A stretch of 64,000 bases of DNA from a virus: the IMG/VR virus record IMGVR_UViG_3300047667_000558, positions 2,278 to 66,277 of that record. One strand, written 5' to 3'. The stretch's first letter is position 1. Each line of letters begins with the position of its first letter. Shown here one piece after another: positions 2,842 through 62,254 of the stretch. The notes beneath the pieces were generated by a model. The model saw only the letters and a list, made by a program, of their open reading frames with translations. It ran no database searches and was not told the origin of the DNA. Position numbers and translations under genes: made by a program.

Positions 2842-2862
2842 TTTGGTTTCCTGTTCTATACT

Positions 2863-2891: not shown

Positions 2892-2907
2892 ACACTATTT
2901 TTTGGCT

Positions 2908-2915: not shown

Positions 2916-2978
2916 TCATCACACAGTGTATGCCTAATTATATAGGTATATTATCACTGGTATTTATCGGGAAATAAA

Positions 2979-14989: not shown

Positions 14990-14993
14990 ATTG

Positions 14994-25727: not shown

Positions 25728-25735
25728 GATAAATA
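25728..25735 (+). promoter_or_regulatory. Putative late promoter, fibre cassette 1
   Basis: GATAAATA, followed by an AGGA RBS before the ATG at 25759. Confidence 0.6.
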
Positions 25736-28283: not shown

Positions 28284-28284
28284 T

Positions 28285-29133
28285 ATGTTAAGAAGCAGAA
28301 GTGCAAATTCTGGGTTGGCGGCACCAGGTCAAGCCCAAGGCCAAGTGACACTAGTACCGGATGATTCAGTTAATATCATTGGTTCTGTAATCAGTAACTC
28401 TGCCCGAAATAACGTATATTCAACAGGTGAATGGTCTAGCACTGGTCCTTGGACAACTTATTACCACTCTTGGCAGGATGCCAATTCAATCACTCAAGGT
28501 TTTAATATGTTTATGGGTGATGGTCATCCTGATGGTACTTCACAATTTATGTATGTAAACGATGGTGAAAACGCAATGACCCGTAACAGGGAATATGCGC
28601 ATGGCTACCGTCTTGGTAATATGTATAAAGACTATTTTTATTATGACAACATTACTTCCAATTACGGTGGTGTTTCTTGGAGATGTACCCCTGTTCGTAA
28701 CACTACAGGTGCGCAAATTACCAGAACTCTAAACACCTATTTGTCAGCTGTGGATAGTACTTACGGTGGTAGTGCTATTGCAGTTTATACCCCGAACTCT
28801 AATACATATGCAACCACGACAGGTGGTGCATGGACAACGCCATGGTCTGGCGGTTCCGGCACGAACGCAGCAACGTATAACGGTAGCATAACCATTCCAG
28901 CTAACACTACTGTTCTTGTTTTTACAACCAGCTGTCATCGGTATAATACCACGTATAGGTTTAAAGACAGCAACATGTTATATAACCTTGCCACGTTTTT
29001 TGACGGTGATCTGCTATGTGATCTACGAATGTTAGAAACAGTAGCCACAGCCAGACTTGAAGGCGCGACTTACACAAACGCTGTACCACATAAATTATAT
29101 ACTGTATGTGCAGCTTTACAGGGAGACAGATAA
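28285..29133 (+). CDS. Hypothetical fibre-associated beta-rich protein
   Basis: AGGAG RBS; start MLRSRSA at 28285. Confidence 0.65.
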   Translation: MLRSRSANSGLAAPGQAQGQVTLVPDDSVNIIGSVISNSARNNVYSTGEWSSTGPWTTYYHSWQDANSITQGFNMFMGDGHPDGTSQFMYVNDGENAMTRNREYAHGYRLGNMYKDYFYYDNITSNYGGVSWRCTPVRNTTGAQITRTLNTYLSAVDSTYGGSAIAVYTPNSNTYATTTGGAWTTPWSGGSGTNAATYNGSITIPANTTVLVFTTSCHRYNTTYRFKDSNMLYNLATFFDGDLLCDLRMLETVATARLEGATYTNAVPHKLYTVCAALQGDR

Positions 29134-29135
29134 TT

Positions 29136-29390
29136 ATGAACTTTCCAGATGAAACACACCTACCTCATATTCAGTCGCAGATTGTTGACGGTGTTAAACG
29201 CGACACTTGTGATGAAATTCTTGCTGCCTACAGTATCTCTGATCAGCTAAATGCAACAGGTACTGAAAAGACCGCAATGCAAACCGCAATTGGTGAAATG
29301 ATTTCTGAGGGGAAGGCAAAGCAGGATGCTGTTCTCGCAGCTACTACTTTTGCAGAACTTAACGAAATTGTTCCAATGAACGAAGAATAA
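29136..29390 (+). CDS. Small fibre assembly chaperone-like protein
   Basis: I.AAYS...QLN and C-terminal AATT.AEL..I pattern typical of fibre chaperones; last gene of cassette 1. Confidence 0.55.
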   Translation: MNFPDETHLPHIQSQIVDGVKRDTCDEILAAYSISDQLNATGTEKTAMQTAIGEMISEGKAKQDAVLAATTFAELNEIVPMNEE

Positions 29391-29415
29391 ATACCATAAG
29401 ACATAAGGAAAGTCA

Positions 29416-30639
29416 ATGACTGAAACAAATAGAGACACCCTTAAAGGGGACATTGCAACCAACTTACCCGATAACTCGACAGGTGAAATTTCACCCGCTG
29501 ATATCCGCAATGAATTAGTTAAATTGACAGATAGTGTACCGTTTAAATATACATCGCAAACAATTCCACCAGTTGCAGACGACGATATTAATGGCACTGC
29601 TGGTAATGGGTCATTTGGAATTGGCGACTCTTGGGTAGATGGTGCTTCTGGCATTATTTACATTTGTGCTGACAATACAGCTAACGCTGCAATTTGGCAA
29701 ATATCAGCCACTAACTTTGCCGTTATTGGTGATGGTGACGCTGCAATTAATCAAATTGCAATTTGGCAAGATGATTCAGTTGTAGTCGGCACGTCAGACT
29801 TTACATATGCTGCTGGTGTATTGGACGTAGAAGGAACAGTTGCAGCAACAGATTTTACAGGTGACGGCTCAGCATTAACTGGCGTTGCATCAAGCGCACA
29901 AGGTGCGTTGGCCGATACAGCTACCCAACCAGAAGACTTGGGCACGTCCGCAGTCGAAGATGTAGGCTATTTTGCAACCGCAGCACAAGGTGCGTTGGCC
30001 GATACAGCCACTCAGCCAGAAGATTTGGGCACAGCTGCAGTCGAAGATGTAGGCTATTTTGCAACCGCAGCACAAGGCGGAACAGCCGACACAGCATTAC
30101 AGCCTACAGGAGATGGAACACAGCTTACAGGTATCAGTTCTGCTCAAATCGGCTTAGGTAATGTAGATAATACTGCTGATACGACCAAACCTGTGTCTAC
30201 TGATCAACAAACTGCACTTGATTTAAAAGAGGATGCAGATGCAACAATATCCAAAACAGGTGTAGCTGAGATAAGAAGTGCTTCTATTGATATGAATGAT
30301 AACGTACTACAGGGTGCAGAAATTAAGGACTATGCAGAAACTGTAGTTGCAATGGCTGCTAGTGATATTGATTTGTCTGCTGGTAACGTACATACTATCG
30401 CAATCAGCGCGTCTGTGACACTTACATTCTCTAACCCACCAGTATCAGGCAAAGCTGGCGCATTCACATTGATTTGTACTATGAGTGGCGCACCAGTAAT
30501 TACATGGCCTGCTAGCGTGGCATGGCCCGCAGCCACCGCTCCTACGCTAAGTACATCAGGCAAAGATATATTCAGTTTTTTGACTACTGACGGCGGCTCA
30601 ACTTGGTATGGATTTGCGGCTGGATTAGGGTTAGCGTAA
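29416..30639 (+). CDS. Fibre protein, cassette 2 (MxETNR head)
   Basis: About 155-aa head shared with 32090 and 41573; AAQG repeats, GLGNVDNTAD.KPVS, and a C-terminal TWPASV...TTDGGSTWYG domain. TAAATA at 29388. Confidence 0.8.
   Translation: MTETNRDTLKGDIATNLPDNSTGEISPADIRNELVKLTDSVPFKYTSQTIPPVADDDINGTAGNGSFGIGDSWVDGASGIIYICADNTANAAIWQISATNFAVIGDGDAAINQIAIWQDDSVVVGTSDFTYAAGVLDVEGTVAATDFTGDGSALTGVASSAQGALADTATQPEDLGTSAVEDVGYFATAAQGALADTATQPEDLGTAAVEDVGYFATAAQGGTADTALQPTGDGTQLTGISSAQIGLGNVDNTADTTKPVSTDQQTALDLKEDADATISKTGVAEIRSASIDMNDNVLQGAEIKDYAETVVAMAASDIDLSAGNVHTIAISASVTLTFSNPPVSGKAGAFTLICTMSGAPVITWPASVAWPAATAPTLSTSGKDIFSFLTTDGGSTWYGFAAGLGLA
29896..30077 (+). repeat. Tandem 87-bp (29-aa) duplication in the fibre shaft
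   Basis: AQGALADTATQPEDLGT.AVEDVGYFATA occurs twice. Confidence 0.9.
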
Positions 30640-31586
30640 TGATTGGTAATAAATTAAGATTTGGCGGCGGCGTCGTCGGGTTGTACAACTTTACCTCACA
30701 TACCTTCACAACCTTAGGCTCACAGGGTAAAAGTGGGCCTACTTCTGTAGCCGGATATTCGGGGTCAGACGTAGACGGATACGTTTCCCTCTCAGCAGGA
30801 CGACAATTATGGGTGGTTCCTATGACAGGGAATTACAGAGTAACCGTCGCAGGTGCCCAAGGCGGTGTTGGCGGCGGCTCCGCTGCCACCTATTATGGCG
30901 GTGGTGGTGGCGTAATACGTGCGACACTCAGTTTGGTCGAAGGAGAGACGCTCTACTTATTAGTCGGACAGAGAGGAGGCAGCGTTTGTGCGGCAAGAGC
31001 AGCAGGCGGCGGCGGAGCTTCTGTTGTGGCAAATGCACAATACTCTAATGTGCGCATGGTTGCTGGCGGCGGCTCCGCAGGCGGGGGCAATACCAACCCA
31101 CGTAATGGCATAGATGCGTTGACTTGGAACGGCAGCAATAGTGGGGCTGGTGGCGGTGGCGGCGGCAACGGCGGCGGCGGCGGGGGCGGCGGCGCGTATA
31201 GCAATGCATCCGGGACAACAGCCGACACCCCTGATCTCAACGGTATAGGATACCAATCAACAATGTTAGGCGGCTTCGGCGGCAGTTGTGCTGCTTCTAG
31301 GGACGCCTCCTGTGGATTATACGTAGAATCAAGTGGTTCTCTTGATTTTGGCGGCTTCGGCGGTGGCGGCGGCGGCGAGTGGTGTAGCTCAGGCGGTATC
31401 GGCGCAGGTGGAGGGTTTACAGGTGGTAACGGTAACGCCACCAGCGACGCCTCGGCGGCTCTCACGGCATCAACGTCATACATAGAACCGTCAGCAACTA
31501 CTACGACAGCCTTAACTACTAATAGGTCCACCACATTATCATTAGGTAGTAGCCTAAACGGGTATATAATCATAGAAGTAATCTAG
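30639..31586 (+). CDS. Glycine-rich tip/adhesin protein (ALK/LTK-like glycine-rich domain)
   Basis: Q.W.VP.TG.Y.V..AGA.GG, L.LLVGQ.G, GGFGGGGG and GYIII motifs; TAATG-coupled to the fibre. Confidence 0.7.
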   Translation: MIGNKLRFGGGVVGLYNFTSHTFTTLGSQGKSGPTSVAGYSGSDVDGYVSLSAGRQLWVVPMTGNYRVTVAGAQGGVGGGSAATYYGGGGGVIRATLSLVEGETLYLLVGQRGGSVCAARAAGGGGASVVANAQYSNVRMVAGGGSAGGGNTNPRNGIDALTWNGSNSGAGGGGGGNGGGGGGGGAYSNASGTTADTPDLNGIGYQSTMLGGFGGSCAASRDASCGLYVESSGSLDFGGFGGGGGGEWCSSGGIGAGGGFTGGNGNATSDASAALTASTSYIEPSATTTTALTTNRSTTLSLGSSLNGYIIIEVI

Positions 31587-31600
31587 GAAGAATTTTTATA

Positions 31601-32041
31601 ATGTACATAAACAAATTAACAGGTGTCGTGTCATCCTCAGTGTCAATCACTAACATATCGTTGCCCAAGGATATAAGTCCAGCTACCTTAGAGGAACTAG
31701 GTTATGCGAAGATCATCCTTACAGTTAGGCCTGATTACAAAGTAGGCAGGGTAATTACTGAGACCGTCGTAGAAGTGGCAGGATCATATACCCAGCAGTG
31801 GATTATTGATGACTCTCTAGTTGATGATGCTTCTGTTTTGCGGCATGAAAGAGATTTAATGTTAAGTCAATCAGACCACACCCAGGCCACTGATACAACA
31901 CAAACAGTAACTGATAAAGAAGCTTGGGCAGTATACAGACAAGAACTTAGAGACTTACCTGCTACCTATGCAAGTAATCCTGCAGAGGTTGTATGGCCTA
32001 CGTCTCCTAGTGTTATCCTTGATGCTCCTGCTAAACCATAA
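31601..32041 (+). CDS. Tail fibre assembly chaperone
   Basis: RHERDLMLSQSDHTQ...W..YRQELRDLP...WP motif. Confidence 0.8.
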   Translation: MYINKLTGVVSSSVSITNISLPKDISPATLEELGYAKIILTVRPDYKVGRVITETVVEVAGSYTQQWIIDDSLVDDASVLRHERDLMLSQSDHTQATDTTQTVTDKEAWAVYRQELRDLPATYASNPAEVVWPTSPSVILDAPAKP

Positions 32042-32064
32042 TGGCTCCAACATTTAAAATAGGC

Positions 32065-32095
32065 TAAATAATAGTAACAAGGAAATTAAATGGCA
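32065..32095 (+). repeat. Cassette leader (partial copy): TAAATA late promoter + AAGGA RBS
   Basis: TAAATAATAGTAACAAGGAAA is identical to 41548-41568; TAAATA-to-ATG offset is 25 nt. Confidence 0.8.
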
Positions 32096-34327
32096 GAAAC
32101 AAATAGAACCACCCTTAAAGGGACAATTGCAACCAACTTACCCGACAATACGTCTAATCAAATTTCTGCCGCCGATATCCGCAATGAATTGATTAGCTTG
32201 GCAGACAGTGTCCCATTTAGATATACATCACAAACAATTCCACCAGTTGCAGGCGATGACATCAATGGCACGGCTGGCAATGGGTCATTTGGAATTGGCG
32301 ACTCTTGGGTAGATGGTGCTTCTGGTATTATTTACATTTGCGCAAGCAATGCAGCATCAAATGCAATTTGGCAAATATCAGCCACTAACTTTGCCGTTAT
32401 TGGTGATGGTGATGCTGCAATTAATCAAATTGCAATTTGGCAAGATGATTCAGTTGTAGTCGGTACGTCAGATTTTACATACGCTGCTGGTGTACTGAGC
32501 GTAACAGGCACCGTGGCCGCAACAGATTTTACAGGCGATGGTTCTGCATTAACTGGGTTTGCGACAGTTGCTACTACAGGCGACTATGTTGATCTTATAA
32601 ATTTACCAACACTTGGTACTGTTGCTACTACAGGTGATTATGTTGATCTTATAAATTTACCAACACTTGGTACCGTTGCTACTACAGGTGATTATGTTGA
32701 TCTTATAAATTTACCAACACTTGGTACTGTTGCAGTTCTAGATACGACTGATGTGTTAATTGTTACAAACAACCTTTCGGAATTGACCAATCCAGCAATA
32801 GCAAAAAACAACCTAGGTATTGACATAGCTGAAGCTAGTGTTGCATCTGCTACGACAACCGATCTAGGAGCAGTCGCGTCAGACAATATGTTGATTACTG
32901 GCACGACTACTATCGCCTCATTTGGCACAGCAGCGGCTGGCGTCACTCGCAAGGGTCGTTTTGGCGACACACTAACACTCACATATAACGCAACCAGTAT
33001 GATCTTGCCAGGCGTAGCAGATATCACCACATCTGCCAATAGCACATTTGAAGCATTATCTCTCGGAGCAGGCAACTGGATTGTTACCAAGTACCAAAAA
33101 ACAGACGGCACAGCTGTAATCGGCAGTGCTGGAAGTGCTGGCGGCACTGCCTACACTACAACAAAAACTGCTAACTACACTGCTGTGACAAACGAAGGTG
33201 TGTTGACTGATACGTCTGGCGGCACATTTACTGTGACATTACCTGCATCACCGACAAACGGCATGCAGGTAATAATTGCTGACGTGAGCAATTCATGGGG
33301 CGCGAACAACCTTATTATAGGGCGTAATCTCAGCAATATTGCCGATGCCTCGGAAGACTTTATTTGTGATATCAACGGGGCTTCGGTCCAGTTTGTTTAC
33401 AATGCATCTGCACCAGCATCTTGGGAAGTGTTTTCTCAGGTTGGCGGTAGTGGCGGCACTGCAGTCACGTTGGATGGCGTGCAGACACTCACAAATAAGA
33501 CGTTAACTGCACCTGCCCTTGGCACGCCTGTAAGTGGCACATTAACCAATGTCACTGGGCTACCTCCTGCTGGTGTGGTTGGTACTGCGGTCACATTGGA
33601 TGGCGTACAGACACTCACAAATAAGACGATTAACGATCTAGCAGAAGTAAGCATTGTTTCCGCCGCAACAGTAAATATTGGAGGGGTAGCATCAAACAAT
33701 GTGTTGATTACTGGGGTGACGGACATCACCTCGTTTGGCACAGCAGCGGCAGGTGTCACCCGCAAGGGACGCTTTGACGGTGTGTTAACACTCACATATA
33801 ACGCAACCACTATGATCTTGCCAGGTGTAGCAGATATTACTACGTCTGCCAACAGCACGTTCGAGGCATTATCTCTGGGCGCTGGCAATTGGATTGTCAC
33901 TAAGTATCAGAAAGCTGATGGCACTGCTGTAATTGGGCTTGCCGATGCAAACGGCGACGTGCTCTTTTCGGAAGAATTAACAGCTACAAGTTATAATGAA
34001 ACTCATGTCGCAGTAACGTCCTCGGCTAATGCCACAACTATCGACTGTGAGACAGGTAACACGTTCAGTCATATACTGACTGAAAACACCACGATCACGT
34101 TCAGCAATCCTCCTGCATCGGGTACGTCCTACACAATGTCGGTAGAACTTATTCAGGACGTTTCTGCAACTGGTTTCAGTGTGACATGGCCTGCATCTAT
34201 TGACTTCCCATCTGCAACAGCCCCCACATTAACAGCTACCGCCAGCGCAGTTGATGTATTCGTATTCACTACTCGTGATGGTGGAACCACATGGTACGGC
34301 TTTACTGCCGGACAAGCATTAGCGTAA
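32090..34327 (+). CDS. Fibre protein, cassette 3 (MxETNR head)
   Basis: Shared head, two copies of the SAT..ITG...LILPG domain, an internal TLPASP domain, TLTNKT motifs and a C-terminal TTRDGGTTWYG domain. Confidence 0.8.
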   Translation: MAETNRTTLKGTIATNLPDNTSNQISAADIRNELISLADSVPFRYTSQTIPPVAGDDINGTAGNGSFGIGDSWVDGASGIIYICASNAASNAIWQISATNFAVIGDGDAAINQIAIWQDDSVVVGTSDFTYAAGVLSVTGTVAATDFTGDGSALTGFATVATTGDYVDLINLPTLGTVATTGDYVDLINLPTLGTVATTGDYVDLINLPTLGTVAVLDTTDVLIVTNNLSELTNPAIAKNNLGIDIAEASVASATTTDLGAVASDNMLITGTTTIASFGTAAAGVTRKGRFGDTLTLTYNATSMILPGVADITTSANSTFEALSLGAGNWIVTKYQKTDGTAVIGSAGSAGGTAYTTTKTANYTAVTNEGVLTDTSGGTFTVTLPASPTNGMQVIIADVSNSWGANNLIIGRNLSNIADASEDFICDINGASVQFVYNASAPASWEVFSQVGGSGGTAVTLDGVQTLTNKTLTAPALGTPVSGTLTNVTGLPPAGVVGTAVTLDGVQTLTNKTINDLAEVSIVSAATVNIGGVASNNVLITGVTDITSFGTAAAGVTRKGRFDGVLTLTYNATTMILPGVADITTSANSTFEALSLGAGNWIVTKYQKADGTAVIGLADANGDVLFSEELTATSYNETHVAVTSSANATTIDCETGNTFSHILTENTTITFSNPPASGTSYTMSVELIQDVSATGFSVTWPASIDFPSATAPTLTATASAVDVFVFTTRDGGTTWYGFTAGQALA
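32567..32728 (+). repeat. Three tandem 54-bp units (VATTGDYVDLINLPTLGT)
   Basis: Near-identical units start at 32567, 32621 and 32675. Confidence 0.92.
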
Positions 34328-34339
34328 GGAGCGTAAATA

Positions 34340-36460
34340 ATGGCTACTAAAAAGAAAATGTTACAGGCTGCGGCGGGCAATGCTGGCGGTGGTACAATTG
34401 AACCCGTTGGCGTAGACTTCGATGGTGGGTTTGATCGGCTGTCTCGCGCAAGTGACCTCGTGGGAAATGTGGACGGCAAAGAAGGGACCGCTGCCTTCTG
34501 GATATACGCTAACTCGGCAGCTTCTAACGACATGATATTGTCGGCGGGAGGGACAAGTTCATCGAGGGGAATTAAGGTTGCTATGTCAACAGGCGGCGGA
34601 TCGCTTAATGGCATATCCTTTCAATTCTTTAATACTTCGGACTCTCAAATCGCTTTTTGCGACACCATAAGTGTAAGTAAACAAACTTGGATACACATTT
34701 TAGCCTCATGGGACTTGGCCGCTGGAGTGTTTAAAATTTATGTGGATGATGTTGAGGCACAAAGATCACCAAGCCTCTCAAACGCTAACATAAATTACAC
34801 CAACACAGCGTGGGGGATAGCCAATTTAAACTCTACTCTAACACTGGACGGTCGCCTCGCAGGTGTCTACCTCGATTACACCTACCGTGATCTATCCGTA
34901 GAAGCTAACCGCCGCGACTTCATTGATGCTGATGGTCTATACGTCACCCCGCCAACCAGCGGCATCATTAGCGTCCCTATGGACGATCCTGCCGATCCGG
35001 GTCGCAACGATGGTACAGGTGGTGACTTCACGCTTAACGGCACGGTTGCTCGTAGTGGTCGTGGGCCTGACCAGTATAATGTTGCGGCTAGTACGTTTGA
35101 TGGGGGTGCTGATTATATGGAGAACACCAGCATATCTACCCCTACAACCAAAGAATTTACATTTTCTGCTTTTATTAAGCTAAACGCAAACAATAATGGA
35201 TACCTGTTTACCAAGGCCCAGTATTCAAATGGAGTTGTAAACCCATTCGAGCTTTACTATTCAGGGTCAAACATTCGGATAAGGGCAGCCACTGATGTGG
35301 GTGGCACAGTTACCGCCAACTACACCATCCCCTCGTCAGACTTGCCACTAGGTAAGTATGTAAGCGTGCAGATTTCCTTTGACCTTACTTCCACGTCTAA
35401 TCGGTATGTACTTGTTAATGGGAATGATGCTGGCGGAAGCTGGACTACATACTCAAATACTCAAACAGTGGCGGGTAATCGCGCATGTGTAGGAGGTTCA
35501 TACAGTTCTACTTTTGGTTTTGATGGTGATATATCAGATTTATACTTCGACACCTCCTACATCGACCTAGCCACATACAACCCCTTCTACGACGCTGGCA
35601 CCAACAAACCCAAGTACCTCGGTGCGTCCGGTGAACTACCTACAGGCTCAAGCCCTCTGATCTACCTGCCGCTACGTGCAGATGACGCAGGGAATAACTT
35701 AGGTACAGGTGGTGACTTCACGGTAAACTCAGGGCCTTATGTTGGTGCTAGGGGTGCGAGTGAGTTCTTGGCTAGGAGCGCTGAGTTTGATGGGAGTACG
35801 GGTTATCTGAGCCGAGCAGCCCTTACGGGAGCAGCAGATAGCAAGACTTTTAGCCTAGTTGTTGCTTTTAAGCCTACCACTTCAGCTACAAAGTGGTTGC
35901 TACGCTTCGAGGACTCTGGGTTCCAGATACAATTAGGGCTTTACATAGACACAGCCAGTTCTACCCTAATAGTAACGGGCTTGGATGGTGCAACTGCTAC
36001 GTTTGATGCTAGACTGAACTCCTCTTGGACCTTGAACAACACAACCATTGCGTTCTTATCTGTAGACCTTGACAGCACATCCCGCCGATACTTTCAAACA
36101 CTAACCGTCGGCTCACCAAGTTGGGAAAGATATATTGCCAACGATTTAGGGTTTTCTGGTATTGTAGACAGTAAAATAGGGCGTGGATACACGTCTGGCA
36201 CTACGTGGGACGGGGACATAGGCTCCTTGTACCTTACCACAGATTACATAGACTTTAATCAAGAAGCCAATCGCCTCAAGTTCGTGGATGGCCTCGGCTA
36301 CCCAGTAGACCTTCAACCTGCCATTGATGCGGGTGATATTCCCACCCCCTTAATTCACATGAAGTTCGATGACACCTCGGCCCTTGGGACTAACTCAGGT
36401 AGCGGCGGTGATTTCACAGTTAATGGCACAGTAACCGCTGGCCCAGACGTAAAAGGATAA
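34340..36460 (+). CDS. Tip/adhesin with three ConA/LamG-like lectin modules
   Basis: WIHILASWD...KIYVD. Three modules each begin FDG..DY/RL and end G.N.G.GGDFT.N. Confidence 0.7.
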   Translation: MATKKKMLQAAAGNAGGGTIEPVGVDFDGGFDRLSRASDLVGNVDGKEGTAAFWIYANSAASNDMILSAGGTSSSRGIKVAMSTGGGSLNGISFQFFNTSDSQIAFCDTISVSKQTWIHILASWDLAAGVFKIYVDDVEAQRSPSLSNANINYTNTAWGIANLNSTLTLDGRLAGVYLDYTYRDLSVEANRRDFIDADGLYVTPPTSGIISVPMDDPADPGRNDGTGGDFTLNGTVARSGRGPDQYNVAASTFDGGADYMENTSISTPTTKEFTFSAFIKLNANNNGYLFTKAQYSNGVVNPFELYYSGSNIRIRAATDVGGTVTANYTIPSSDLPLGKYVSVQISFDLTSTSNRYVLVNGNDAGGSWTTYSNTQTVAGNRACVGGSYSSTFGFDGDISDLYFDTSYIDLATYNPFYDAGTNKPKYLGASGELPTGSSPLIYLPLRADDAGNNLGTGGDFTVNSGPYVGARGASEFLARSAEFDGSTGYLSRAALTGAADSKTFSLVVAFKPTTSATKWLLRFEDSGFQIQLGLYIDTASSTLIVTGLDGATATFDARLNSSWTLNNTTIAFLSVDLDSTSRRYFQTLTVGSPSWERYIANDLGFSGIVDSKIGRGYTSGTTWDGDIGSLYLTTDYIDFNQEANRLKFVDGLGYPVDLQPAIDAGDIPTPLIHMKFDDTSALGTNSGSGGDFTVNGTVTAGPDVKG

Positions 36461-36975
36461 TGACTATGTATGCTAAAATCACAAATGGACTGGTAGATCA
36501 GTTCCCATATTCCGTTTCTAAACTAAAGCGGGACAACCCTCTCACTTCATACCCAAGCCCTATGAGCACGCCGCAAATGGCCAACGCTGGCCTATATTTT
36601 GTGAAGGGTCTATCGGCACCAGAGATTGGACCTTATGAGGTTGCTTACCACACAGGTGATATTGTCCAAGTCGGTGGCGAGTGGCAACGTGAGTGGGCTA
36701 TTCAAGATATGTTCGCTGACACCACCGATGAAGACGGGGTGACTACAACAAAAGCAGAGCACGAGGCAGCTTACCAAGCTACACTAGATGCAACTGCTGC
36801 CACCGCTATCCGCATTAAACGCACAGGGTTGCTAGCTGACACAGATTGGACACAGCTTGCTGATGCCATGGTCGACGCGACTTCATGGGGAACTTATAGG
36901 CAGGCATTACGTGATATTACCACTCATACTTCTTTTCCGTATCTTGCGGAAGAGGACTGGCCCGTTAGACCGTAA
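36460..36975 (+). CDS. Tail fibre assembly chaperone
   Basis: R..LLADTDWTQL.D....W..YRQALRDI...WP motif. Confidence 0.8.
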   Translation: MTMYAKITNGLVDQFPYSVSKLKRDNPLTSYPSPMSTPQMANAGLYFVKGLSAPEIGPYEVAYHTGDIVQVGGEWQREWAIQDMFADTTDEDGVTTTKAEHEAAYQATLDATAATAIRIKRTGLLADTDWTQLADAMVDATSWGTYRQALRDITTHTSFPYLAEEDWPVRP

Positions 36976-37025
36976 TAGTCAACTGTCCCATTACTAAATA
37001 CTAATAACAAGGAAAAGATATGGCA
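36974..37025 (+). repeat. Cassette leader copy: AATAGTCAACTGT-8 nt-TAAATA-AAGGAAAAGA-ATGGCA
   Basis: Same motif order and spacing as the copies at 39093 and 41527; begins within the upstream stop codon. Confidence 0.85.
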
Positions 37026-37802
37026 ACACTATCAAACATTATCACGCCGACAAACCTCGTCACAGCGACAAGCACAACTACGCTTACGAATAAGACGTTA
37101 ACTGCGCCTACATTTGACGGTACACCTGATGGCACTGCCACGACGTTTATAGGGGCGGCTGGTGCCTTGATGGATAGCGAGGTAACTAATCTCGCACAGA
37201 TCAAGGCGTTTGATACGGCTGACTATGCAACAGCAGCACAAGGTACCACAGCGGATAGTGCCCTACAAAGCGGGGACCTCGCGTCGGCTGGCGCGTTGAT
37301 GGATAGCGAGGTGACTAATCTTGCACAGGTTAAAGCATTTGATACGGCTGACTATGCTACAGCAGCCCAAGGCTCAACGGCTGACACTGCCCTGCAAAGC
37401 GGCACCATCGGGTCAACTGTTCAGGGTTACGACGTGGACACGTTAAAGGCGGACACCGCAGACAATCTTACAGCCGCCTTTACAGCCGCCGTCGATGACG
37501 ACGGGACGCTGACAACAGGAACCTACACACCCACCACCGCTGCAGGGTCTAACTACAAGAAGATTATAAACGGCGGGGCGTTTACGATTGCGCCTCCTGC
37601 CCTTGCGACGAACACAGCCACAACGCTTTCCCTGTTTATCGTCAATAATGCCAGTGCGGGGGCAATCACAACAAGCGGCTTCACTATGGTAAATGGTGAC
37701 GCATTTACAACGACGAACGGAGACGAGTTTCTGTGCAGGATTGAAGTGTTTGACATTGGCGGCACGGAGTTTTCTCTGTTTAATGTGGTGGCAATGCAAT
37801 GA
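37020..37802 (+). CDS. Fibre protein, cassette 4 (MATLSNIITP head)
   Basis: TLTNKTL; duplicated GALMDSEVTNLAQ.KAFDTADYATAAQG; C-terminal NGGAFT.A.P...GAIT.SGFT...GD domain. Confidence 0.78.
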   Translation: MATLSNIITPTNLVTATSTTTLTNKTLTAPTFDGTPDGTATTFIGAAGALMDSEVTNLAQIKAFDTADYATAAQGTTADSALQSGDLASAGALMDSEVTNLAQVKAFDTADYATAAQGSTADTALQSGTIGSTVQGYDVDTLKADTADNLTAAFTAAVDDDGTLTTGTYTPTTAAGSNYKKIINGGAFTIAPPALATNTATTLSLFIVNNASAGAITTSGFTMVNGDAFTTTNGDEFLCRIEVFDIGGTEFSLFNVVAMQ

Positions 37803-38455
37803 CTTTAATTCTACCACAGATTGGCGGCTGGTATAGTGCTGGTAGCGCTGTTGACGCTATAAATTTCGCATCTGGCCACGGTGGCCTCAAAGACATTACC
37901 GCAAGTCAAATGAACTTCGGGTCAGGTCCTTACACTTACGAAACATGGTTCAACACCCCCATTAGCCCCGGTGCCATAAGTTATATGCAGGTTGTGGGGA
38001 GCGGTTTCGCTACTAACAGTTCTAGTATATACCTTCAAGGGGCCAGTTACGCATTTTGGTCGAATGGTGCGGAAAGAATTAGTACAGCAAGCTACACTGC
38101 TAATTTGTGGACTCACGTCGCGGTTACTGTGCAGAGCAATACAGCAACGATGTGGGTAGGAGGTGCGCAGATTACAACTGGTGGGTCAATCGGCAATGTG
38201 ACTACTACCGAGCTTTATGTTGGTGCCAATCCCGGCGGAAGCACCCAATATCAAGGCTTGCTGTATAAGCCCAGAGTTTCAAGTGGCGCTAGGTACACCT
38301 CAGCCTTTACGCCGGACACGGACTACACTGTTGATGGCACTACGCTTTTCATGCCTGTTGCTGATAGCGCCTCTGGTATTTATGACGCAGCAGGAAATGC
38401 TACTTTAGTTGTAGGATCAGGGGTTACTAGAGATTTAACAGGAGCAAAACCATGA
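37799..38455 (+). CDS. Tip protein with a single LamG/ConA-like domain
   Basis: YTYETW, WTHVAVT...MWVGG, RVSSGARYTSAFTP; ATGA-coupled to the fibre. Confidence 0.75.
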   Translation: MTLILPQIGGWYSAGSAVDAINFASGHGGLKDITASQMNFGSGPYTYETWFNTPISPGAISYMQVVGSGFATNSSSIYLQGASYAFWSNGAERISTASYTANLWTHVAVTVQSNTATMWVGGAQITTGGSIGNVTTTELYVGANPGGSTQYQGLLYKPRVSSGARYTSAFTPDTDYTVDGTTLFMPVADSASGIYDAAGNATLVVGSGVTRDLTGAKP

Positions 38456-38955
38456 AGCTAGCCCACATCAGAAGCGGTGAAATTATCCGCGTATATCCCG
38501 ACAGCAATGGCCGCGTCCTGCTGGAAAATGGCGACACGGTGTCGCCACCTGTTGCGGGTTACATCAACGGCAATGATCGGATTGTCCCTGTTGAAGAAAT
38601 GACGGTAGACAACTCAACAACCACACGCACCGCATCTACAAGTGTCGAAACGGTAGAGGATGATCGCGTTCTGCGCACTATGAATATCACAGATATGGCG
38701 ATTGAGGATATCCGCGCGGGTCTGTCATGCACCAAAATGCAAGGGGTACTCACCCTTGGTGAAGTTATGTGGGGAAGGGTGATTGCTTTTTGTGATGATG
38801 ATCCTTCTACAACTCTGATACAGAAGGAGATTATTAACAGCTCCGATAATTGGACGCGTAACAGCGAAAACATCCAATTCATTGGGTATTTGATCGGCTT
38901 CAACGACGAGCAGATGGACGCCATGTTCACCGCTGCGGCATTGGTCGAAGCATAG
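38452..38955 (+). CDS. Putative fibre chaperone, cassette 4
   Basis: C-terminal W.R...I..IG..IG...QMDAMFTAAA pattern; last gene of the cassette. Confidence 0.65.
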   Translation: MKLAHIRSGEIIRVYPDSNGRVLLENGDTVSPPVAGYINGNDRIVPVEEMTVDNSTTTRTASTSVETVEDDRVLRTMNITDMAIEDIRAGLSCTKMQGVLTLGEVMWGRVIAFCDDDPSTTLIQKEIINSSDNWTRNSENIQFIGYLIGFNDEQMDAMFTAAALVEA

Positions 38956-39019
38956 CCGCAAAAGAATTTATAATCAGCCACGATTGTGGCATTGTTCTAT
39001 AAAATAAAGGGCTAAGAAT

Positions 39020-39097
39020 ATGTGCACAGACACAACGACAACAACTTACTCGCTGGTTAAGCCGGAAGTCGGCGCATCCGAGGATACGGGGAAATAG
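39020..39097 (+). pseudogene. 25-codon remnant of a foreign fibre gene N-terminus
   Basis: Translates to MCTDTTTTTYSLVKPEVGASEDTGK*, which resembles the recalled MADTTTTxYxLxKPEVGASEDTWG start of phage fibres. It is cut where the leader repeat begins. Confidence 0.55.
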
Positions 39098-39144
39098 TCA
39101 ACTGTACCGTCGATAAATAACAATAACAAGGAAAAGACATGGCA
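39079..39144 (+). repeat. 66-bp cassette leader copy (late promoter + RBS)
   Basis: 62/66 identical to 41513-41578 (four transitions). Confidence 0.92.
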
Positions 39145-40887
39145 ACACTATCAAACATTATCACACCAACAAACCTCGTCACAGCGACAAGCGCAACTAC
39201 GCTTACGAATAAGACGTTAACTGCGCCCGCTCTTGGCACGCCTGTAAGTGGCACATTAACCAATGTCACTGGGCTACCTCCTGCTGGTGTGATTGGCACG
39301 GCGGTCACATTGGATGATACACAGACACTCACAAATAAGACGTTAACTGCGCCTACATTTGACGGTACACCTGATGGCACTACCACGACGTTTATAGGGG
39401 CGGCTGGTGCGTTGATGGACAGCGAGGTAACTAATCTCGCTCAAGTCAAAGCGTTCGATACGACTGACTATGCAACAGCTGCGCAAGGTACGCTTGCAGA
39501 TGATGCAGCTACCTTGGCGTCACCAACATTCACTGGCACCCCAGCAGCACCAACAGCAACCATAGGAACAGACACAACGCAGGTGGCCACAACGGCCTTT
39601 GTGTTAGCAAATGGCAAAGAAATAGCGTCTGAAATCGAAGCCGAGGCTGGCACAGACAACACCAAGGTTATGACACCACTAAGGTCCGCCCAAGCGATTG
39701 CGGCGTTGGCGTCATCCGGTCTTGTGGGTGATATCACCTACACCAAACGAAGCACAGTCGCGACTGGTTTCTTGCGAACGGATGGTGCGGTTTACTTGCA
39801 ATCGGCTTACCCTGCTTTGTTTGCGGTGATAGGTCTTATTCCTAGCTGGGATGAGGCGGTAAAACTTTCAAACCCTTCAAATCTCCCCTCTAGTCTTGTA
39901 ACCGATGTCGCATGGAGTTCCGATAGCGTTTACTTAGCCGCCACTTGGCAACAATCGCCTTATGTGAATATCTATAAAAGATCAGGCGATACTTTTACAA
40001 AACTCACCAACCCTTCAACGCTTCCCCCCAGCTACGCATACGGCGTTTCATTTAGCCCCGATGTCGTTCACATGGTGGTAGGCCACTCTAACTCGCCTTT
40101 CGTGTCTATCTATAAACGCTCTGGCGACACGTTCACAAAGTTGGCAAATCCTTCAAGCCTGCCTAGTAACTACGTGCAAGCTACCGAGTTCAGTCGCGAA
40201 GGGAACTATTTTGTAGCTTGTTTTGCCTCAAACCCTTTCATAGCCGTCTACAAACGATCTGGTGATACATTTACAAAGTTGTCAAACCCTTCAACGCTTC
40301 CGGGCGGGGACGGTTATTGCGCCTCATGGAGCCCGGACGACACTTATCTAGCTTGGGGCGGCAGGGTTTCGCCTTATATAAATATCTACAAACGATCAGG
40401 TGACACATTTACAAAGTTAGCAAATCCTTCAAGCCTGCCGACAGATGATGTCAACGGAGTAGAGTTTAGCCCTGACGGTGTTTATCTAGCCGTTTGCGGT
40501 GACGCGGCAGCTAATGTCCTAGTGTATAAACGATCAGGGGATACATTTACAAAACTTACCAACCCAGCGGCTGTGAGCGGAAACGCGAATGGTGTTACTT
40601 GGAGTCCTGATGGCAGTTACATGATGGTCGCCAGCGGTTCGTCACCTTATATAACTTTTTATGAGAGATCAGGTGATACATTCACAAAGTTGGCAAACCC
40701 CGCTTCGCTTCCGGCTGGTTCAGGCTACGGAATAGCGGCCAGCGGCAACAGCCTATACACGGCGTTAGGCCACAACAGCACGCCTTTCCTTTCTATCTAC
40801 AAAGGGGTTTCCTACGACCCTGACACGGAATTTGAAGTCCCTACAGTTTCATCGGATGACACATCCCCACTAATCAAAGCGGAGTAA
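39139..40887 (+). CDS. Fibre protein, cassette 5: MATLSNIITP head, collar domain and 7-repeat beta-propeller
   Basis: SPTFTGTPAAPT...TQVATTAFV; collar GFLRTDGAVY....YPALFAVIG; seven ~45-aa repeats with (Y/F)(K/E)RSGDTFTKL.NP and W/FSPD. Confidence 0.82.
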   Translation: MATLSNIITPTNLVTATSATTLTNKTLTAPALGTPVSGTLTNVTGLPPAGVIGTAVTLDDTQTLTNKTLTAPTFDGTPDGTTTTFIGAAGALMDSEVTNLAQVKAFDTTDYATAAQGTLADDAATLASPTFTGTPAAPTATIGTDTTQVATTAFVLANGKEIASEIEAEAGTDNTKVMTPLRSAQAIAALASSGLVGDITYTKRSTVATGFLRTDGAVYLQSAYPALFAVIGLIPSWDEAVKLSNPSNLPSSLVTDVAWSSDSVYLAATWQQSPYVNIYKRSGDTFTKLTNPSTLPPSYAYGVSFSPDVVHMVVGHSNSPFVSIYKRSGDTFTKLANPSSLPSNYVQATEFSREGNYFVACFASNPFIAVYKRSGDTFTKLSNPSTLPGGDGYCASWSPDDTYLAWGGRVSPYINIYKRSGDTFTKLANPSSLPTDDVNGVEFSPDGVYLAVCGDAAANVLVYKRSGDTFTKLTNPAAVSGNANGVTWSPDGSYMMVASGSSPYITFYERSGDTFTKLANPASLPAGSGYGIAASGNSLYTALGHNSTPFLSIYKGVSYDPDTEFEVPTVSSDDTSPLIKAE

Positions 40888-40891
40888 GATA

Positions 40892-41470
40892 ATGCGCACA
40901 ATTTACAGTATAGACAAAGATAGCATGTTCTCTGGTGGGGTTCTTGAGATTGGCCCCAAGGATGGACGACCAAAGGGGTGGGTTACAGCGGAAACGCCAC
41001 CACCTGACGGGCTTGCACAATGGAACGGTAACGGGTGGACGGTGCTGGATCAAAGGCCACTACCCCCTGACGTTTACCCTGATGTCCAATCCGCACGCGC
41101 GGCAATGCTGGGCTTTATCGAACGTCTGACAGATCAAGTCACAAGTCAATATCCAAAAGCGGAAGTAGCGGCGTGGCCTTCCAAAGCGGAAGCGGCGCGG
41201 GCTGTTATTGCCGACACTGCGCGGGCCGATCAAGTGGCGTTAATTCAAGACGAAGCCGACATCGTTGGGGCAACCCTTGCAGATCAAGCGGCGGCAATCG
41301 TAGTGAAAGCCGTGGTTTTTGAAGCAATCGTCGCGAAGGTTTCGGGCTTGCGTCAATCTACAGACGCGGCGTTGGTCTTGGCGACTACATCGGCAGAACG
41401 TGAGGCGGTTCTTGATGCGGCAACTATCCAAGCCACGGACATGGCCACAGCATATGGGCTTATAGTATGA
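40892..41470 (+). CDS. Putative fibre assembly protein, cassette 5
   Basis: N-terminal PP...WNG.GW; helical YP..E...WP.K.EAA domain typical of tail-associated proteins. Confidence 0.65.
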   Translation: MRTIYSIDKDSMFSGGVLEIGPKDGRPKGWVTAETPPPDGLAQWNGNGWTVLDQRPLPPDVYPDVQSARAAMLGFIERLTDQVTSQYPKAEVAAWPSKAEAARAVIADTARADQVALIQDEADIVGATLADQAAAIVVKAVVFEAIVAKVSGLRQSTDAALVLATTSAEREAVLDAATIQATDMATAYGLIV

Positions 41471-41512
41471 ATCATAACTACTCCGAAATCCGTGTCATTG
41501 GCTTCAGTATTT

Positions 41513-41578
41513 CGAGGATATGGAGAAATAGTCAACTGTACCGTCGATAAATAATAGTAACAAGGAAAAGACATGGCA
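41513..41578 (+). repeat. 66-bp cassette leader copy (late promoter + RBS)
   Basis: Matches 39079-39144 throughout, and matches 32065 downstream of TAAATA. Confidence 0.92.
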
Positions 41579-43273
41579 GAAACAAACAGAGAGACCCTTA
41601 AAGGGTCCATTACAATCAATCTACCCAACAATACGACTGGTGAAATTACTGCGGGTGATATACGTGATGCGTTGCATGACATTGCGGATAGTGTCCCGTT
41701 TAAATACACTTCGCAAGGAATTCCGCCAGTAGCAAACGACGATATTAATGGTACCGCGAGCCATGGATCATTTGCCATTGGCGACCAATGGGTAGACGTT
41801 GCTTCGGACATTATTTACATTTGCGCCGATAACACAGCTAATGCTGCAATTTGGCAAATATTAGCTACAAATTTTCCAGTTATTGGTGACGGTGCCGCAG
41901 CGATTAATCAAGTAGCAATTTGGCAAAACGATTCATTAATAGAAGGTTCGGCAGATTTTACATTTGCGGCAGGTGTGCTGAATGTATTAGGAACAATTAC
42001 AACGTCTGCAGACGCCACAATAAATGCTCTTACAATAGGTAATGGTGGAAATAATGATGCATCTAACACAGCCATTGGCCAAGCATCACTAATAGCAAAC
42101 ACTCTTGGTAGCAATAATGCAGCCACAGGCTCACGCACGTTAACTGCGAACACTGAGGGTACCAACAATGTAGCTACTGGGACGCATGCTTTAACTGCAA
42201 ACACTATTGGCAACTCCAATACAGCTACTGGGGCGTATACATTATCTGCAAACACTACTGGCATTAATAATACAGCTACTGGCAACGATGCATTATTTTT
42301 TAACACGACTGGTTCCAAGAATGTAGCTACTGGAAAAGATGCATTATATTCTAACACGACAGGTAACAATAATATAGCAACTGGTGGGGATGCTTTGTAT
42401 ACTAACACGACTGGTATTCAAAATATAGCAACTGGTGGAGATGCATTATTTTTTAACACAACTGGTAACAATAATATAGCAACTGGCTATCAATCATTAT
42501 ATTCTAACACTATTGGCAATAGTAACGTGGCTAATGGCGCGTTTGCATTACGTGAAAACACGACTGGTGGCAATAATGTAGCTAATGGATATAAGTCATT
42601 AAATGTGAATACAACTGGCGACAATAATGTGGCTAATGGCGCATTCGCACTATATATTAACACTACTGGTGCAGATAATGTAGCTACTGGCACGAATGCG
42701 TTGTATTCTAACACTACTGGTGCGGATAATGTAGCTACTGGCACGAATGCGTTGTATTCTAACACTACTGGTGCCAACAACGTAGCTTCTGGCACGAATG
42801 CGTTGTATTCTAACACTACTGGCTCCGGCAACATAGCATTCGGTTCGTTAACTTCCGCCGGAACCTACGCCCCTGTTTTTGACGCGACAACCGAAGACAA
42901 CAGGCTCGTTGCTGGTCACACCTCCATCACAAACGCCTACGTGCAAGTCGCATGGACTGTTGTATCTGACGAGCGCGACAAGACAGCGTTCGCGCCAGTC
43001 CCTCACGGCTTGGACTTTGTAAACGCCCTTAAACCAACTGAATACCAATTCAAGGTTGGTGGTCGCGAAGGCCCCGCTGATGGTATCACGCGCTATGGTT
43101 TCTTGGCCCAAGACATTCTGGCACTTGAAGGTGAAAACCCTGTCTTGGTTGACAGAGAAGACCCCGAAAGCTTGAAGCTCAAAGAGAGTAACTTACTGCC
43201 TATAATGGTTAATGCCATTCAAAACCTTTCCGCAGAAGTTGAAAAACTAAAATCCCAACTAGGAGAAAAATAA
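41573..43273 (+). CDS. Fibre protein, cassette 6: MxETNR head, 17-aa beta-roll repeats and C-terminal intramolecular chaperone (peptidase S74)
   Basis: About 15 NTTG.NN.A.G..AL repeats; SDERDK...GLDFV..LKP..Y...GFLAQD followed by a coiled coil. Confidence 0.85.
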   Translation: MAETNRETLKGSITINLPNNTTGEITAGDIRDALHDIADSVPFKYTSQGIPPVANDDINGTASHGSFAIGDQWVDVASDIIYICADNTANAAIWQILATNFPVIGDGAAAINQVAIWQNDSLIEGSADFTFAAGVLNVLGTITTSADATINALTIGNGGNNDASNTAIGQASLIANTLGSNNAATGSRTLTANTEGTNNVATGTHALTANTIGNSNTATGAYTLSANTTGINNTATGNDALFFNTTGSKNVATGKDALYSNTTGNNNIATGGDALYTNTTGIQNIATGGDALFFNTTGNNNIATGYQSLYSNTIGNSNVANGAFALRENTTGGNNVANGYKSLNVNTTGDNNVANGAFALYINTTGADNVATGTNALYSNTTGADNVATGTNALYSNTTGANNVASGTNALYSNTTGSGNIAFGSLTSAGTYAPVFDATTEDNRLVAGHTSITNAYVQVAWTVVSDERDKTAFAPVPHGLDFVNALKPTEYQFKVGGREGPADGITRYGFLAQDILALEGENPVLVDREDPESLKLKESNLLPIMVNAIQNLSAEVEKLKSQLGEK

Positions 43274-43482
43274 TGAACGATATAACAGTAGAACAAATTG
43301 CCCAAAACTACACTGCAATGGGTCACTCGGTTGACTTGATTAACGCTGGACAACCAGAAGGTATGTCTGATGCTGAATGGACAGACCTCGTAGATCGCAA
43401 TGTAAGCCATTTACAACTAATGGTAGCCAAAGACTATTGGACAACTGAAGATATGACTGCGGTAAATACTGCTATAGAGTAA
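43273..43482 (+). CDS. Small fibre-associated protein (69 aa)
   Basis: TAATG-coupled; IAQ.Y.AM..SVDLI...RNV.HL..M.AKDYWTTEDM. Confidence 0.7.
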   Translation: MNDITVEQIAQNYTAMGHSVDLINAGQPEGMSDAEWTDLVDRNVSHLQLMVAKDYWTTEDMTAVNTAIE

Positions 43483-43575
43483 AAACATAGTTTTTATCAG
43501 CTATATTTGTGTAAAACGGTGCCATATTAGTCATGATTGATACTGCTAAATACTACAATAGAACAAGGTAACACA

Positions 43576-54391: not shown

Positions 54392-54736
54392 CGGCACATC
54401 ACAGTCGTCCCATCGTTTTGTAAGCATACTGACAAATCTTAGATCAGTGACTGCTTTAAATGAATGTGGAAGGTACGCAGGAACGCGCACACTGTCGCCA
54501 ACGTTTAACACAGTTGTGTACTCACAACTATCACCGTATTCAGTAAAATTACAAACACCATCCACCACCATGATATATTCAACAAACTCAGGATGATAAT
54601 GATATCCTCGTTCATTGCCTTGCAATGTAGTGAGTAAGTTGTATTCTACTATATGGTCGTCTGGAAAGAAACTCTGAATGGTGCCACGCGGATCACCAAA
54701 TACAGTAGGGGTCATTATTGTGCAATATTTTAACAT
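54362..54736 (-). CDS. Cupin, NDP-sugar isomerase/epimerase-like (FdtA/RmlC type)
   Basis: D.RG, RGYHYH...E, and PH cupin motifs. Confidence 0.75.
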   Translation of the reverse strand: MLKYCTIMTPTVFGDPRGTIQSFFPDDHIVEYNLLTTLQGNERGYHYHPEFVEYIMVVDGVCNFTEYGDSCEYTTVLNVGDSVRVPAYLPHSFKAVTDLRFVSMLTKRWDDCDVPLVTIRNNTT

Positions 54737-56701: not shown

Positions 56702-56820
56702 GGCGTGTTCCTTTTAATATCTTGGCATAGTGTCTTTATGTCTGTTGTGGTCATGCATAAGTGACACCGCACTCGCTGCCCACGATCTTCTCCAACAAAA
56801 AATAATCTAACGTTAGTCAT
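56698..56820 (-). CDS. 40-aa micro-ORF coupled to both neighbours
   Basis: MTNVRLFFVGEDRGQRVRCHLCMTTTDIKTLCQDIKRNTP*; 8-bp overlap upstream and ATGA overlap downstream. Confidence 0.4.
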   Translation of the reverse strand: MTNVRLFFVGEDRGQRVRCHLCMTTTDIKTLCQDIKRNTP

Positions 56821-60969: not shown

Positions 60970-60990
60970 AGGTGAACCTTTTGTTACTGA

Positions 60991-61007
60991 TATTTATATC
61001 ATAAATA
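60991..61007. promoter_or_regulatory. Divergent late promoters: TATAAATA on the minus strand (60991-60998) and CATAAATA on the plus strand (61000-61007)
   Basis: Sequence TATTTATATCATAAATA lies between divergent ATGs at 60969 and 61013. Confidence 0.7.
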
Positions 61008-61012
61008 TTTGC

Positions 61013-62239: not shown

Positions 62240-62254
62240 ATTTGCGTATCGTCA

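Follow-up and report, generated by a model that had tools for sequence, protein, structure and literature searches.

A repeated, probable late-promoter leader at the tail-fibre cassettes of an uncultured jumbo phage and its upstream sequence, a probable scrap of a broken fibre gene

Why should nearly the same short sequence stand in front of tail-fibre genes that begin with different N-terminal heads? The question is raised by the IMG/VR virus record IMGVR_UViG_3300047667_000558, of which 64,000 of the 66,277 bases (hereafter the window) were analysed. The window carries five tail-fibre cassettes, f1 to f5, all on the + strand. Head A (MxETNR...) is common to f1, f2 and f5, where f5 reads MAETNR..., and head B (MATLSNIITPTNLV...) is common to f3 and f4, where f4 reads MATLSN.... 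A leader extending from a TAAATA box to ATGGCA precedes f2, f3, f4 and f5, and in the last three of these a 13-mer, AATAGTCAACTGT, lies upstream of the box. A preliminary description regarded the whole as a non-coding cassette leader with a quasi-palindrome, and proposed a cassette boundary or recombination site, an operator of a regulator, or a relic antisense promoter. The evidence collected here points to a more ordinary answer. The leader is probably the late promoter and translation start of paralogous fibre cassettes, and the sequence upstream of it is probably a scrap of a broken fibre gene that was copied together with it.

The repetition itself is real and far beyond chance. The leader TAAATAnnAnTAACAAGGAAA is found at 32065, 36995, 39114 and 41548 with no mismatch, where 0.02 occurrences are expected and none of 100 shuffles reaches four. 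The 13-mer is exact at 36974, 39093 and 41527, always on the + strand, and has no other exact copy in the window or the 66,277-nt record. When two mismatches are allowed, five matches are found in the window against 2.63 expected; five are reached by 11 of 100 shuffles, and the two extra matches are chance. In the three long copies the arrangement is the same: 13-mer, 8 nt, TAAATA, 19 nt, ATG. Most of what had been described about these copies was borne out. Positions 39079-39144 and 41513-41578 are indeed identical at 62 of 66 sites (94%, repeat family D11), yet the first lies upstream of head B and the second upstream of head A; the copy at 36974 shares the 13-mer, TAAATA and the ribosome-binding site at equal spacing, and the copy at 32065 shares the leader from TAAATA onward. 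The homology between the f4 and f5 blocks starts at 39079, which is 17 nt from TTGACT/AGTCAA at 39096-39101, again as stated. The proposal that the 41513 copy is a mosaic fared less well. Two sites distinguish the 41548 copy from the 39114 copy, and three distinguish it from the 32065 copy, over the 31 nt that begin with TAAATA and end with ATGGCA; the two 32065-like sites stand first and the three 39114-like sites after them. Some 32065-like sites are thus present, but they are few, and their order does not fit one crossover between these copies.

The part from TAAATA to the start codon has the position of a promoter. On the + strand, seven of the 30 TAAATA copies lie 25-30 nt before a listed gene start, where 0.45 would be expected by position alone. 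The seven boxed starts are those of a gene at 25759, of f1 to f5 and of a gene near 43576, the start codon of the last being probably a GTG. Three relatives, L129, L130 and L131, with 65-72% nucleotide identity to the window in shared genes (blastn), retain the box at the orthologues of the gene at 25759 and the gene near 43576, where the flanks differ. The late promoters of T4, of the type TATAAATA, are recognized by gp55 together with gp33 and the gp45 clamp, and transcription from them begins a few bases past the box. The box of the window varies as xTAAATA (GATAAATA or CTAAATA) and deviates from TATAAATA at the first two bases. A sigma-70 scan of 36400-41800 gave no + strand promoter-like site at any leader. 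An ATAAATA motif ahead of structural genes, together with a gp55-like sigma factor, has been proposed as the late system of Rak2-like jumbo phages, and in jumbo phage CBB no gp33 or gp45 co-activator is reported to have been detected (PMC5259590). General scans of 57 ORFs (open reading frames) of the window gave no gp33- or gp45-type PHROG match either; no search was aimed at these proteins, and the record covers 66 kb of an estimated 360 kb or more.

Because the box precedes seven starts, is conserved in relatives, resembles the Rak2-like motif and is accompanied by an encoded gp55-like sigma factor, xTAAATA can be read as a late promoter. The segment from TAAATA to ATGGCA is most likely a T4-type late promoter followed by an AAGGA ribosome-binding site, six bases before ATG, and the start codon, and by analogy with T4 the transcript would start a few bases past the box. 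The gp55-like sigma factor of the phage would thus read a T4-type late box at each fibre cassette, and each cassette would open with a unit of promoter, 5' leader, Shine-Dalgarno AAGGA and start codon, followed by one of a few conserved N-terminal heads.

The sigma-70 scan also bears on the opposite strand, where TTGACT was suspected to be the -35 box of a relic or active antisense promoter. The hexamer occurs on the minus strand at each of the three copies of the 13-mer, and at the 41527 copy it is followed by an 18-nt spacer and AATACT, with nine of 12 matches. That copy, however, is the only one of the three for which the scan reports a site; the -10 position lies outside the conserved block, so that it is unshared, and at the 39093 copy it reads GATGCG on the minus strand (by hand). 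Moreover, five promoter-like sites in the region compare with 6.8 +/- 3.1 in shuffles. An antisense promoter is hardly credible on these grounds.

Comparison with relatives and with co-occurring variants shows where the cassettes are joined. L129/L130 and L131 share with the window a giant gene and the start of the gene at 25759, and then diverge; they become syntenic again at 43515-43545, where the next conserved gene has its TAAATA box. The head-A gene of L129/L130 has blastn homology to f1, f2 and f5 from 29386, 32065 and 41547 onward, at most 2 nt from the first base of each TAAATA. Public runs in which the stretch occurs (20 of 22 among those listed) are mostly ice metagenomes, and the runs X3, X8, X12 and X14 were compared with the window, all as contigs, in which rare forms are invisible. 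Six joints and 24 of 159 loose ends are the basis of what follows on junctions. In X8 and X12, position 28334 is joined to 29388, where the TAAATA of f1 begins. A contig of X12 tracks the window to 37025, the ATGGCA of f3, and then continues with other letters; in this co-occurring variant a different head stands behind the same f3 leader. Other X8 and X12 contigs begin at 41507 or depart from the window there, 6 nt to the left of the f5 block. Loose ends at 38960-38966 occur in three runs (X3, X8 and X12) and have upstream sequences of three kinds. The fibre genes themselves contain many further loose ends. No two leader copies are linked by any of the six joints, although rare forms would be missed in contigs, and neither these joints nor the 24 loose ends place a junction at the 13-mer itself. 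The nearest is a contig end at 39105, the last base of the 13-mer (X8 record 29). As a separate observation, the X12 variant begins M-A-Q-I-S-S-T-T-F after 37025 and resembles the diverged, head-A-like start of an L131 gene at 12027.

These data indicate that the fibre cassettes are most likely exchanged at the edges of the leader and not at the 13-mer or the quasi-palindrome. Junctions would fall at the edges of the unit because a shared unit supplies homology for cassette exchange, and the common segment from TAAATA to ATGGCA would serve as such homology. Judged by the refuting condition of the preliminary description, the role of the leader as a cassette boundary therefore stands at its edges, where synteny starts, joints and loose ends are found, but it does not extend to the quasi-palindrome, where no junction was seen and which is absent from the records of five relatives.

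A site-specific mechanism comparable to a shufflon, an invertible segment or an integron has also to be considered, with the 13-mer as the crossover site of cassette excision and shuffling. Its direct repeats flank whole cassettes (36974, 39093 and 41527), and many cassette variants are present in the population. Nevertheless, all copies are direct and none is inverted, no recombinase or invertase was recognized among the 57 ORFs scanned with PHROGs, the joints listed never link two copies, the listed junctions lie at leader edges or inside genes, and the 13-mer is not conserved in relatives. Such a system is very improbable.

The origin of the sequence upstream of the box is best seen at f4. 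Window positions 38966-39091 align with positions 4003-4123 of L024/L025 at 74.6% identity (blastn, E 1.3e-15), where positions 4055-4756 of L024 form an open, fibre-like gene of 233 codons. The mini-ORF 39021-39098 reads MCTDTTTTTYSLVKPEVGASEDTGK followed by a stop codon, and L024 and L027 read MADT(L/T)TTTY(S/G)LVKPEVGASED(S/T)WG...; the same stump also matches the N-terminus of the L027 gene. This beginning is a third fibre-head type, head C. Its pattern, Y-x-L-x-K-P...W-G...N...D, is presumably common at phage fibre N-termini. After EDT, intact head-C genes read WG(A/G)KIN..LD. In the window, after a net loss of 4 nt, the next frame reads YGEIVNCTVDK, which is collinear and ungapped with WGAKINTTLDT. 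The ungapped BLOSUM62 score of this pair is 24; of 4,000 random 41-nt segments of the window, 1.05% score as high when every frame and offset is allowed. Read in this way, the 13-mer codes for (E)IVNC in the place of KINT, and the remnant would run into the promoter box at GAT AAA TAA. The original description of the leader as non-coding would thus be only partly right, since the part upstream of TAAATA would be a coding remnant. A contig of X3 leaves the window at 39014 and continues M-A-D-T-T-T-T-T-Y (first 30 letters); the population therefore holds an allele that begins like intact head C.

Continuity with the head-C start and its intergenic region is confined to the f4 copy. The f5 copy has a sharp left end at 41513, with three of 25 matches further left, and the f3 copy has a sharp left end at 36974, on the stop codon of a chaperone gene. 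Because only the f4 copy shows this continuity and the other two begin abruptly, the scrap probably arose before f4, and f5 and f3 would have received shorter pieces of it. Between f4 and f5 the leaders are 94% identical, whereas the f5 head has only 78% identity to that of f1 (84% for f2), an observation in favour of recent leader transfer over long-term constraint. The following order of events may be proposed. A unit of promoter plus head B would have come to lie inside a head-C gene before f4, cutting off its 5' end. The 21-35 nt upstream of TAAATA, including AATAGTCAACTGT, would be the decayed 5' end of this gene, a pseudogene scrap, of which pieces would later have moved to f5 (35 nt) and f3 (21 nt) by duplication and recombination.

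Several observations weigh against this account and have to be set beside it. By blastn, homology to head C does not extend beyond 39091, which is two bases short of the 13-mer, and the continuation into the 13-mer is a protein-level match with a p of only about 0.01. A junction at 39092/39093, with the 13-mer at the head of the head-B leader, would fit about as well. In addition, the 13-mer is identical at 13 of 13 positions in three copies, while the next 8 nt differ at five positions between f3 and f4, within a repeat of 92% identity. This is the pattern that constraint would give, and a relic model alone would leave it without explanation. A small replaced patch around the promoter box could account for the spacer differences between f3 and f4, but constraint on the 13-mer could do so as well. 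The box itself differs: f3 has CTAAATAC, like the gene near 43576, and f4 and f5 have GATAAATAA, like the gene at 25759. The absence of the 13-mer from relatives is weak evidence, given that they are distant and that none has a head-B cassette of this lineage. The joints and loose ends, moreover, are a small share taken from contigs only. Finally, the repeat, the breaks of synteny, the homology to head C as far as 39091 and the gene of the late sigma factor are shown, and promoter activity with its start site, the continuation of the relic into the 13-mer and the order of events are inferred.

The junction just named is the basis of one alternative, in which the 13-mer is formed by the first bases of the head-B leader, the head-C gene is cut at 39092/39093, and the protein likeness beyond that point is coincidence; the leader would still be a promoter and ribosome-binding unit copied by duplication. 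The end of the blastn homology to L024 at 39091 agrees with it, and so does the f3/f4 homology, which begins exactly at the 13-mer, right after the stop codon of the chaperone gene. Nor has the f3 copy any head-C-like reading, its best score of 13 being reached by 60% of random segments. On the other hand, the frame-shifted match of YGEIVNCTVDK with WGAKINTTLDT is collinear, and its p of about 0.01 was obtained without requiring collinearity. The codons ACC GTC GAT after the 13-mer also match head-C codons (seven of nine bases against L027, hand count). Head B in other phages gives no support either. A head-B search kept 80 loci, of which four matching from residue 1 in a start codon (L189, L193, L213 and L258) and three internal matches were inspected. 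The four head-B-like N-termini directly follow the upstream gene and have no such leader, the three further matches are internal to longer fibre genes, and a motif pattern search of L189-L268 found no leader. That the 13-mer belongs to the head-B leader is unlikely, though it deserves more weight than the explanations by antisense transcription or site-specific recombination.

A second alternative attributes the pattern of constraint to function. The 13-mer would serve as an operator or as the site of an activator, centred some 25-30 nt ahead of the start in a subset of late fibre promoters, and a phage or host DNA-binding protein would tune the choice of fibre through it. Its three copies are perfectly identical and stand at a fixed 8 nt from TAAATA, the spacer has been free to vary (five of eight positions, f3 against f4), and the 13-mer precedes only f3, f4 and f5, not f1, f2 or the other late genes. 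Beyond this perfect identity, nothing was found that supports the operator originally suggested. Recent copying explains the identity equally, and the relic bases upstream of TAAATA that include the flanks of the 13-mer are also identical at 33 of 35 positions between f4 and f5. No regulator gene was recognized nearby among the 57 ORFs scanned, and T4-type late promoters are not known to need an upstream element. The imperfect palindrome is likewise at chance level, as ATAGTCAACTGT has eight of 12 self-complementary positions and 3.8% of all 12-mers of the window reach that figure. A hairpin in RNA or DNA was considered and rejected, the fold z-scores for the three copies on both strands (-0.49 to +1.15) being none better than shuffles.

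Nor is the 13-mer found elsewhere. In the records of five relatives (233,964 nt) it has no match at up to one mismatch and four at two mismatches, against six for a reversed control. The exact 13-mer followed by eight bases and TAAATA occurs in no stretch of IMG/VR. A leader-like pattern was met there in 20 stretches, as single copies before unrelated genes or inside other sequence and never with the 13-mer, and was discarded as generic or chance. A metagenome scan with AATAGTCAACTGTMCCRT gave 57 stretches, close to the chance estimate; none of the 57 has TAAATA after it and none has a blastn match to the window. The search of genome and relatives suggested earlier thus yields only the three copies of the window, none in the records of the five relatives or in IMG/VR, and none with the leader in the metagenome contigs. 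A cis-acting site is quite improbable, and more so than a head-B origin of the 13-mer.

A small ORF in the frame RGYGEIVNCTVDK, ending in a stop codon, was also dropped as coincidence: its f4 copy has no start codon and its f5 copy joins an upstream ORF only across a TGA. In this frame both differences between the f4 and f5 blocks are synonymous. The ORF 40892-41470 ends in TGA and is followed by 28 sense codons of the same frame through the f5 relic to TAA at 41555-41557, which is taken as coincidence too.

A broader interpretation would make the leader, with its late promoter, ribosome-binding site and ATGGCA, a portable recombination module, the late counterpart of the promoter-early stem-loop cassettes (PeSLs) discussed below. 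Jumbo phages of ice-associated waters would swap whole tail-fibre cassettes by means of it and re-pair N-terminal heads with upstream contexts, and the 13-mer would be a preferred exchange point or a fibre-specific control site and not neutral debris. This is possible but doubtful, and an ordinary late promoter and translation start with a co-copied scrap remains the preferred answer.

The ORFs of the window include a baseplate hub, a baseplate wedge protein, a virion protein of 3,573 residues, the gp55-like late sigma factor and the long tail-fibre run. The wedge protein is 37-42% identical to its counterparts in the jumbo myoviruses Atu_ph07, Munch/7t3, SCTP-2 and PaeM_MIJ3, all 94 matching records are below 60% identity, and a megablast of 36400-41700 against 50,697 phage records gave no DNA match. 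From these comparisons the window is considered a fragment of an uncultured jumbo myovirus, distant kin of Atu_ph07 and of the Salmonella phages Munch and 7t3. The CheckV completeness of 18% for 66 kb corresponds to a full genome of about 360 kb or more. Between conserved flanks (26070-43515) the fibre array measures 17.4 kb, where L129/L130 have about 5.8 kb and L131 has about 7 kb, and would therefore hold about twice as many fibre cassettes as in the nearest relatives. The coordinates of the features are collected in Table 1.

Table 1. Positions in the window of the late sigma factor gene, TAAATA boxes, leaders, fibre genes and head-C remnant.
Feature	Position	Strand	Remarks
gp55-like late sigma factor	1948-2922	-	phrog_12791, E 1e-84; phrog_234, E 4.7e-24
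TAAATA box	25730-25735	+	29 nt before ATG 25759; ATAAATA in relatives L129 and L131
TAAATA box of f1	29388-29393	+	leader conserved in L129/L130
Fibre f1	29416-30639	+	head A
Leader of f2	32065-32095	+	TAAATA, AAGGA, ATGGCA; without the 13-mer
Fibre f2	32090-34327	+	head A
Leader of f3	36974-37025	+	13-mer 36974-36986, overlapping the stop codon of chaperone gene 36460-36975; TAAATA 36995-37000
Fibre f3	37020-37802	+	head B
Intergenic region of head-C cassette	38966-39020	+	stem-loop 38977-38990, then TATAAAATAA; homologous to L024
5' remnant of head-C fibre gene (putative through the 13-mer)	39021-39122	+	25-codon stump to TAG 39096-39098, then shifted frame through the 13-mer to GAT AAA TAA
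Leader of f4	39079-39144	+	13-mer 39093-39105, TAAATA 39114-39119, AAGGA 39128-39132, ATG 39139
Fibre f4	39139-40887	+	head B
Leader of f5	41513-41578	+	13-mer 41527-41539, TAAATA 41548-41553; 62/66 identical to the f4 leader
Fibre f5	41573-43273	+	head A
TAAATA box	43547-43552	+	ahead of a conserved gene; kept as CTAAATAC in L129 and L131

The DNA of head A in f2 and f5 is 78-84% identical to that of f1 over 300 nt (repeat D2, which begins about 11 nt before each ATG). Head B in f3 and f4 is 92% identical across 135 nt (repeat D8), starting at the 13-mer. A tblastn search with head A (126 aa) found no match in the 50,697 phage records, and in the loci related to f5 (25) and f4 (80) only distal or middle fibre parts match, neither heads nor leaders. 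Genes with LamG domains and Phage_tail_APC chaperone genes lie between the fibre genes. The distal fibre parts vary and include a putative beta-propeller, an S74 chaperone domain and other, unassigned kinds. Between 39861 and 40748, f4 has five to six direct repeats, each 138 nt or 46 residues long, with beta-propeller/WD40-like Pfam matches below the cut-offs, and this distal part looks propeller-like. Shaft repeats, all in frame, are present in f5 (42065-42838, 13 tandem units of 51 nt, 17 residues each) and in f2 (32559-32733, three units of 54 nt, 18 residues each). In a GGC-rich, glycine-coding segment of low complexity at 30835-31401 (repeats D12 and D16), the summed contig depth of all four runs is two to eight times that of the bins on either side, and reads appear to be interrupted; cross-mapping of similar repeats is probably the cause.

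Before the broken head-C start, a stem-loop GCCAC-gatt-GTGGC lies with TATAAAATAA at 38977-39010. It is kept in L024, where the left arm is GCCGC and still pairs through a G-T pair. The whole could be a terminator-plus-promoter unit bounding the head-C cassette. Outside the fibre array, 14991-25712 is one ORF of 3,573 codons encoding a virion structural protein (phrog_10938, E 5e-241), with 65-68% nucleotide identity in L129-L131. A block of sugar-nucleotide genes on the minus strand at 54362-63998, with an aminotransferase, two epimerase-like genes and UDP-glucose dehydrogenase-like genes, is an unusual cargo beside virion genes; it may serve the modification of DNA or virion, or act on the host surface.

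Tail fibres set the host range of a phage, and the way in which their genes are exchanged is of corresponding interest. In one uncultured jumbo phage and its co-occurring variants, a probable late-promoter leader of its own marks the boundary of each fibre cassette, and exchanges fall at the leader edges. Nothing here alters what is known of phage transcription or recombination, and the finding is an ordinary one. It also carries a caution, as a perfectly repeated 'motif' beside a promoter can be the co-copied scrap of a broken gene.

Among known systems, T4-type and Rak2-like late promoters are the closest. They share with the window an (A/C)TAAATA box without a -35 element, 25-30 nt before virion gene starts, a phage-encoded gp55-like sigma factor, and a box that is kept at orthologues where the flanks vary. 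The box of the window is xTAAATA (GATAAATA or CTAAATA), unlike the TATAAATA of T4. By its box, sigma factor, position and conservation, the working part of the leader would belong with the late promoters of T4 type.

Fibre arrays with reused N-terminal anchors and exchangeable distal parts are known in RaK2-like and other phages. The array of the window resembles the multi-fibre complexes of RaK2 type in its five fibre genes, which draw on two heads (A in three of them, B in two), in its variable distal parts, and in the LamG genes alongside and the chaperone genes between. Its proteins are not detectably related to RaK2 fibres, as judged from the tblastn search with head A, and the reuse extends here to the leader with its promoter and ribosome-binding site and to the presumed pseudogene scrap.

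Invertible fibre segments are known from Mu (Gin/gix) and P1 (Cin/cix), and shufflons use sfx sites. Short repeated sites beside alternative fibre gene parts are common to these systems and to the window. In contrast, the repeats of the window are direct and without real dyad symmetry, no recombinase was found among the 57 ORFs scanned, and each cassette has its own predicted promoter.

A description of a late-promoter leader as a recombination unit of fibre cassettes was not found in the literature, searched at listing level. The nearest parallel is provided by PeSLs, the promoter-early stem-loop cassettes of T4-type phages, which mediate modular shuffling (PMC2839356). PeSLs share with the leader a short repeated regulatory unit reaching from the upstream stop codon to the next Shine-Dalgarno and start codon, and a place between exchangeable genes where the insertion, deletion and replacement junctions of related phages fall. 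They differ from it in several respects: the putative promoter of the leader is of late type and not sigma-70-like, the leader has no stem-loop, the only one lying apart from it in the head-C intergenic region (38977-38990), the cassettes are essential virion fibre genes and not ORFans of hyperplastic regions, and no mini-circle or copy-to-copy joint was seen among the six joints listed from contigs. Because it lacks a sigma-70-like promoter and a stem-loop, the leader would not be classed as a PeSL, though it appears to work like one at the points of exchange. It fits the idea of short regulatory units that double as recombination handles, which has so far been documented for the early-promoter cassettes of T4-type phages.

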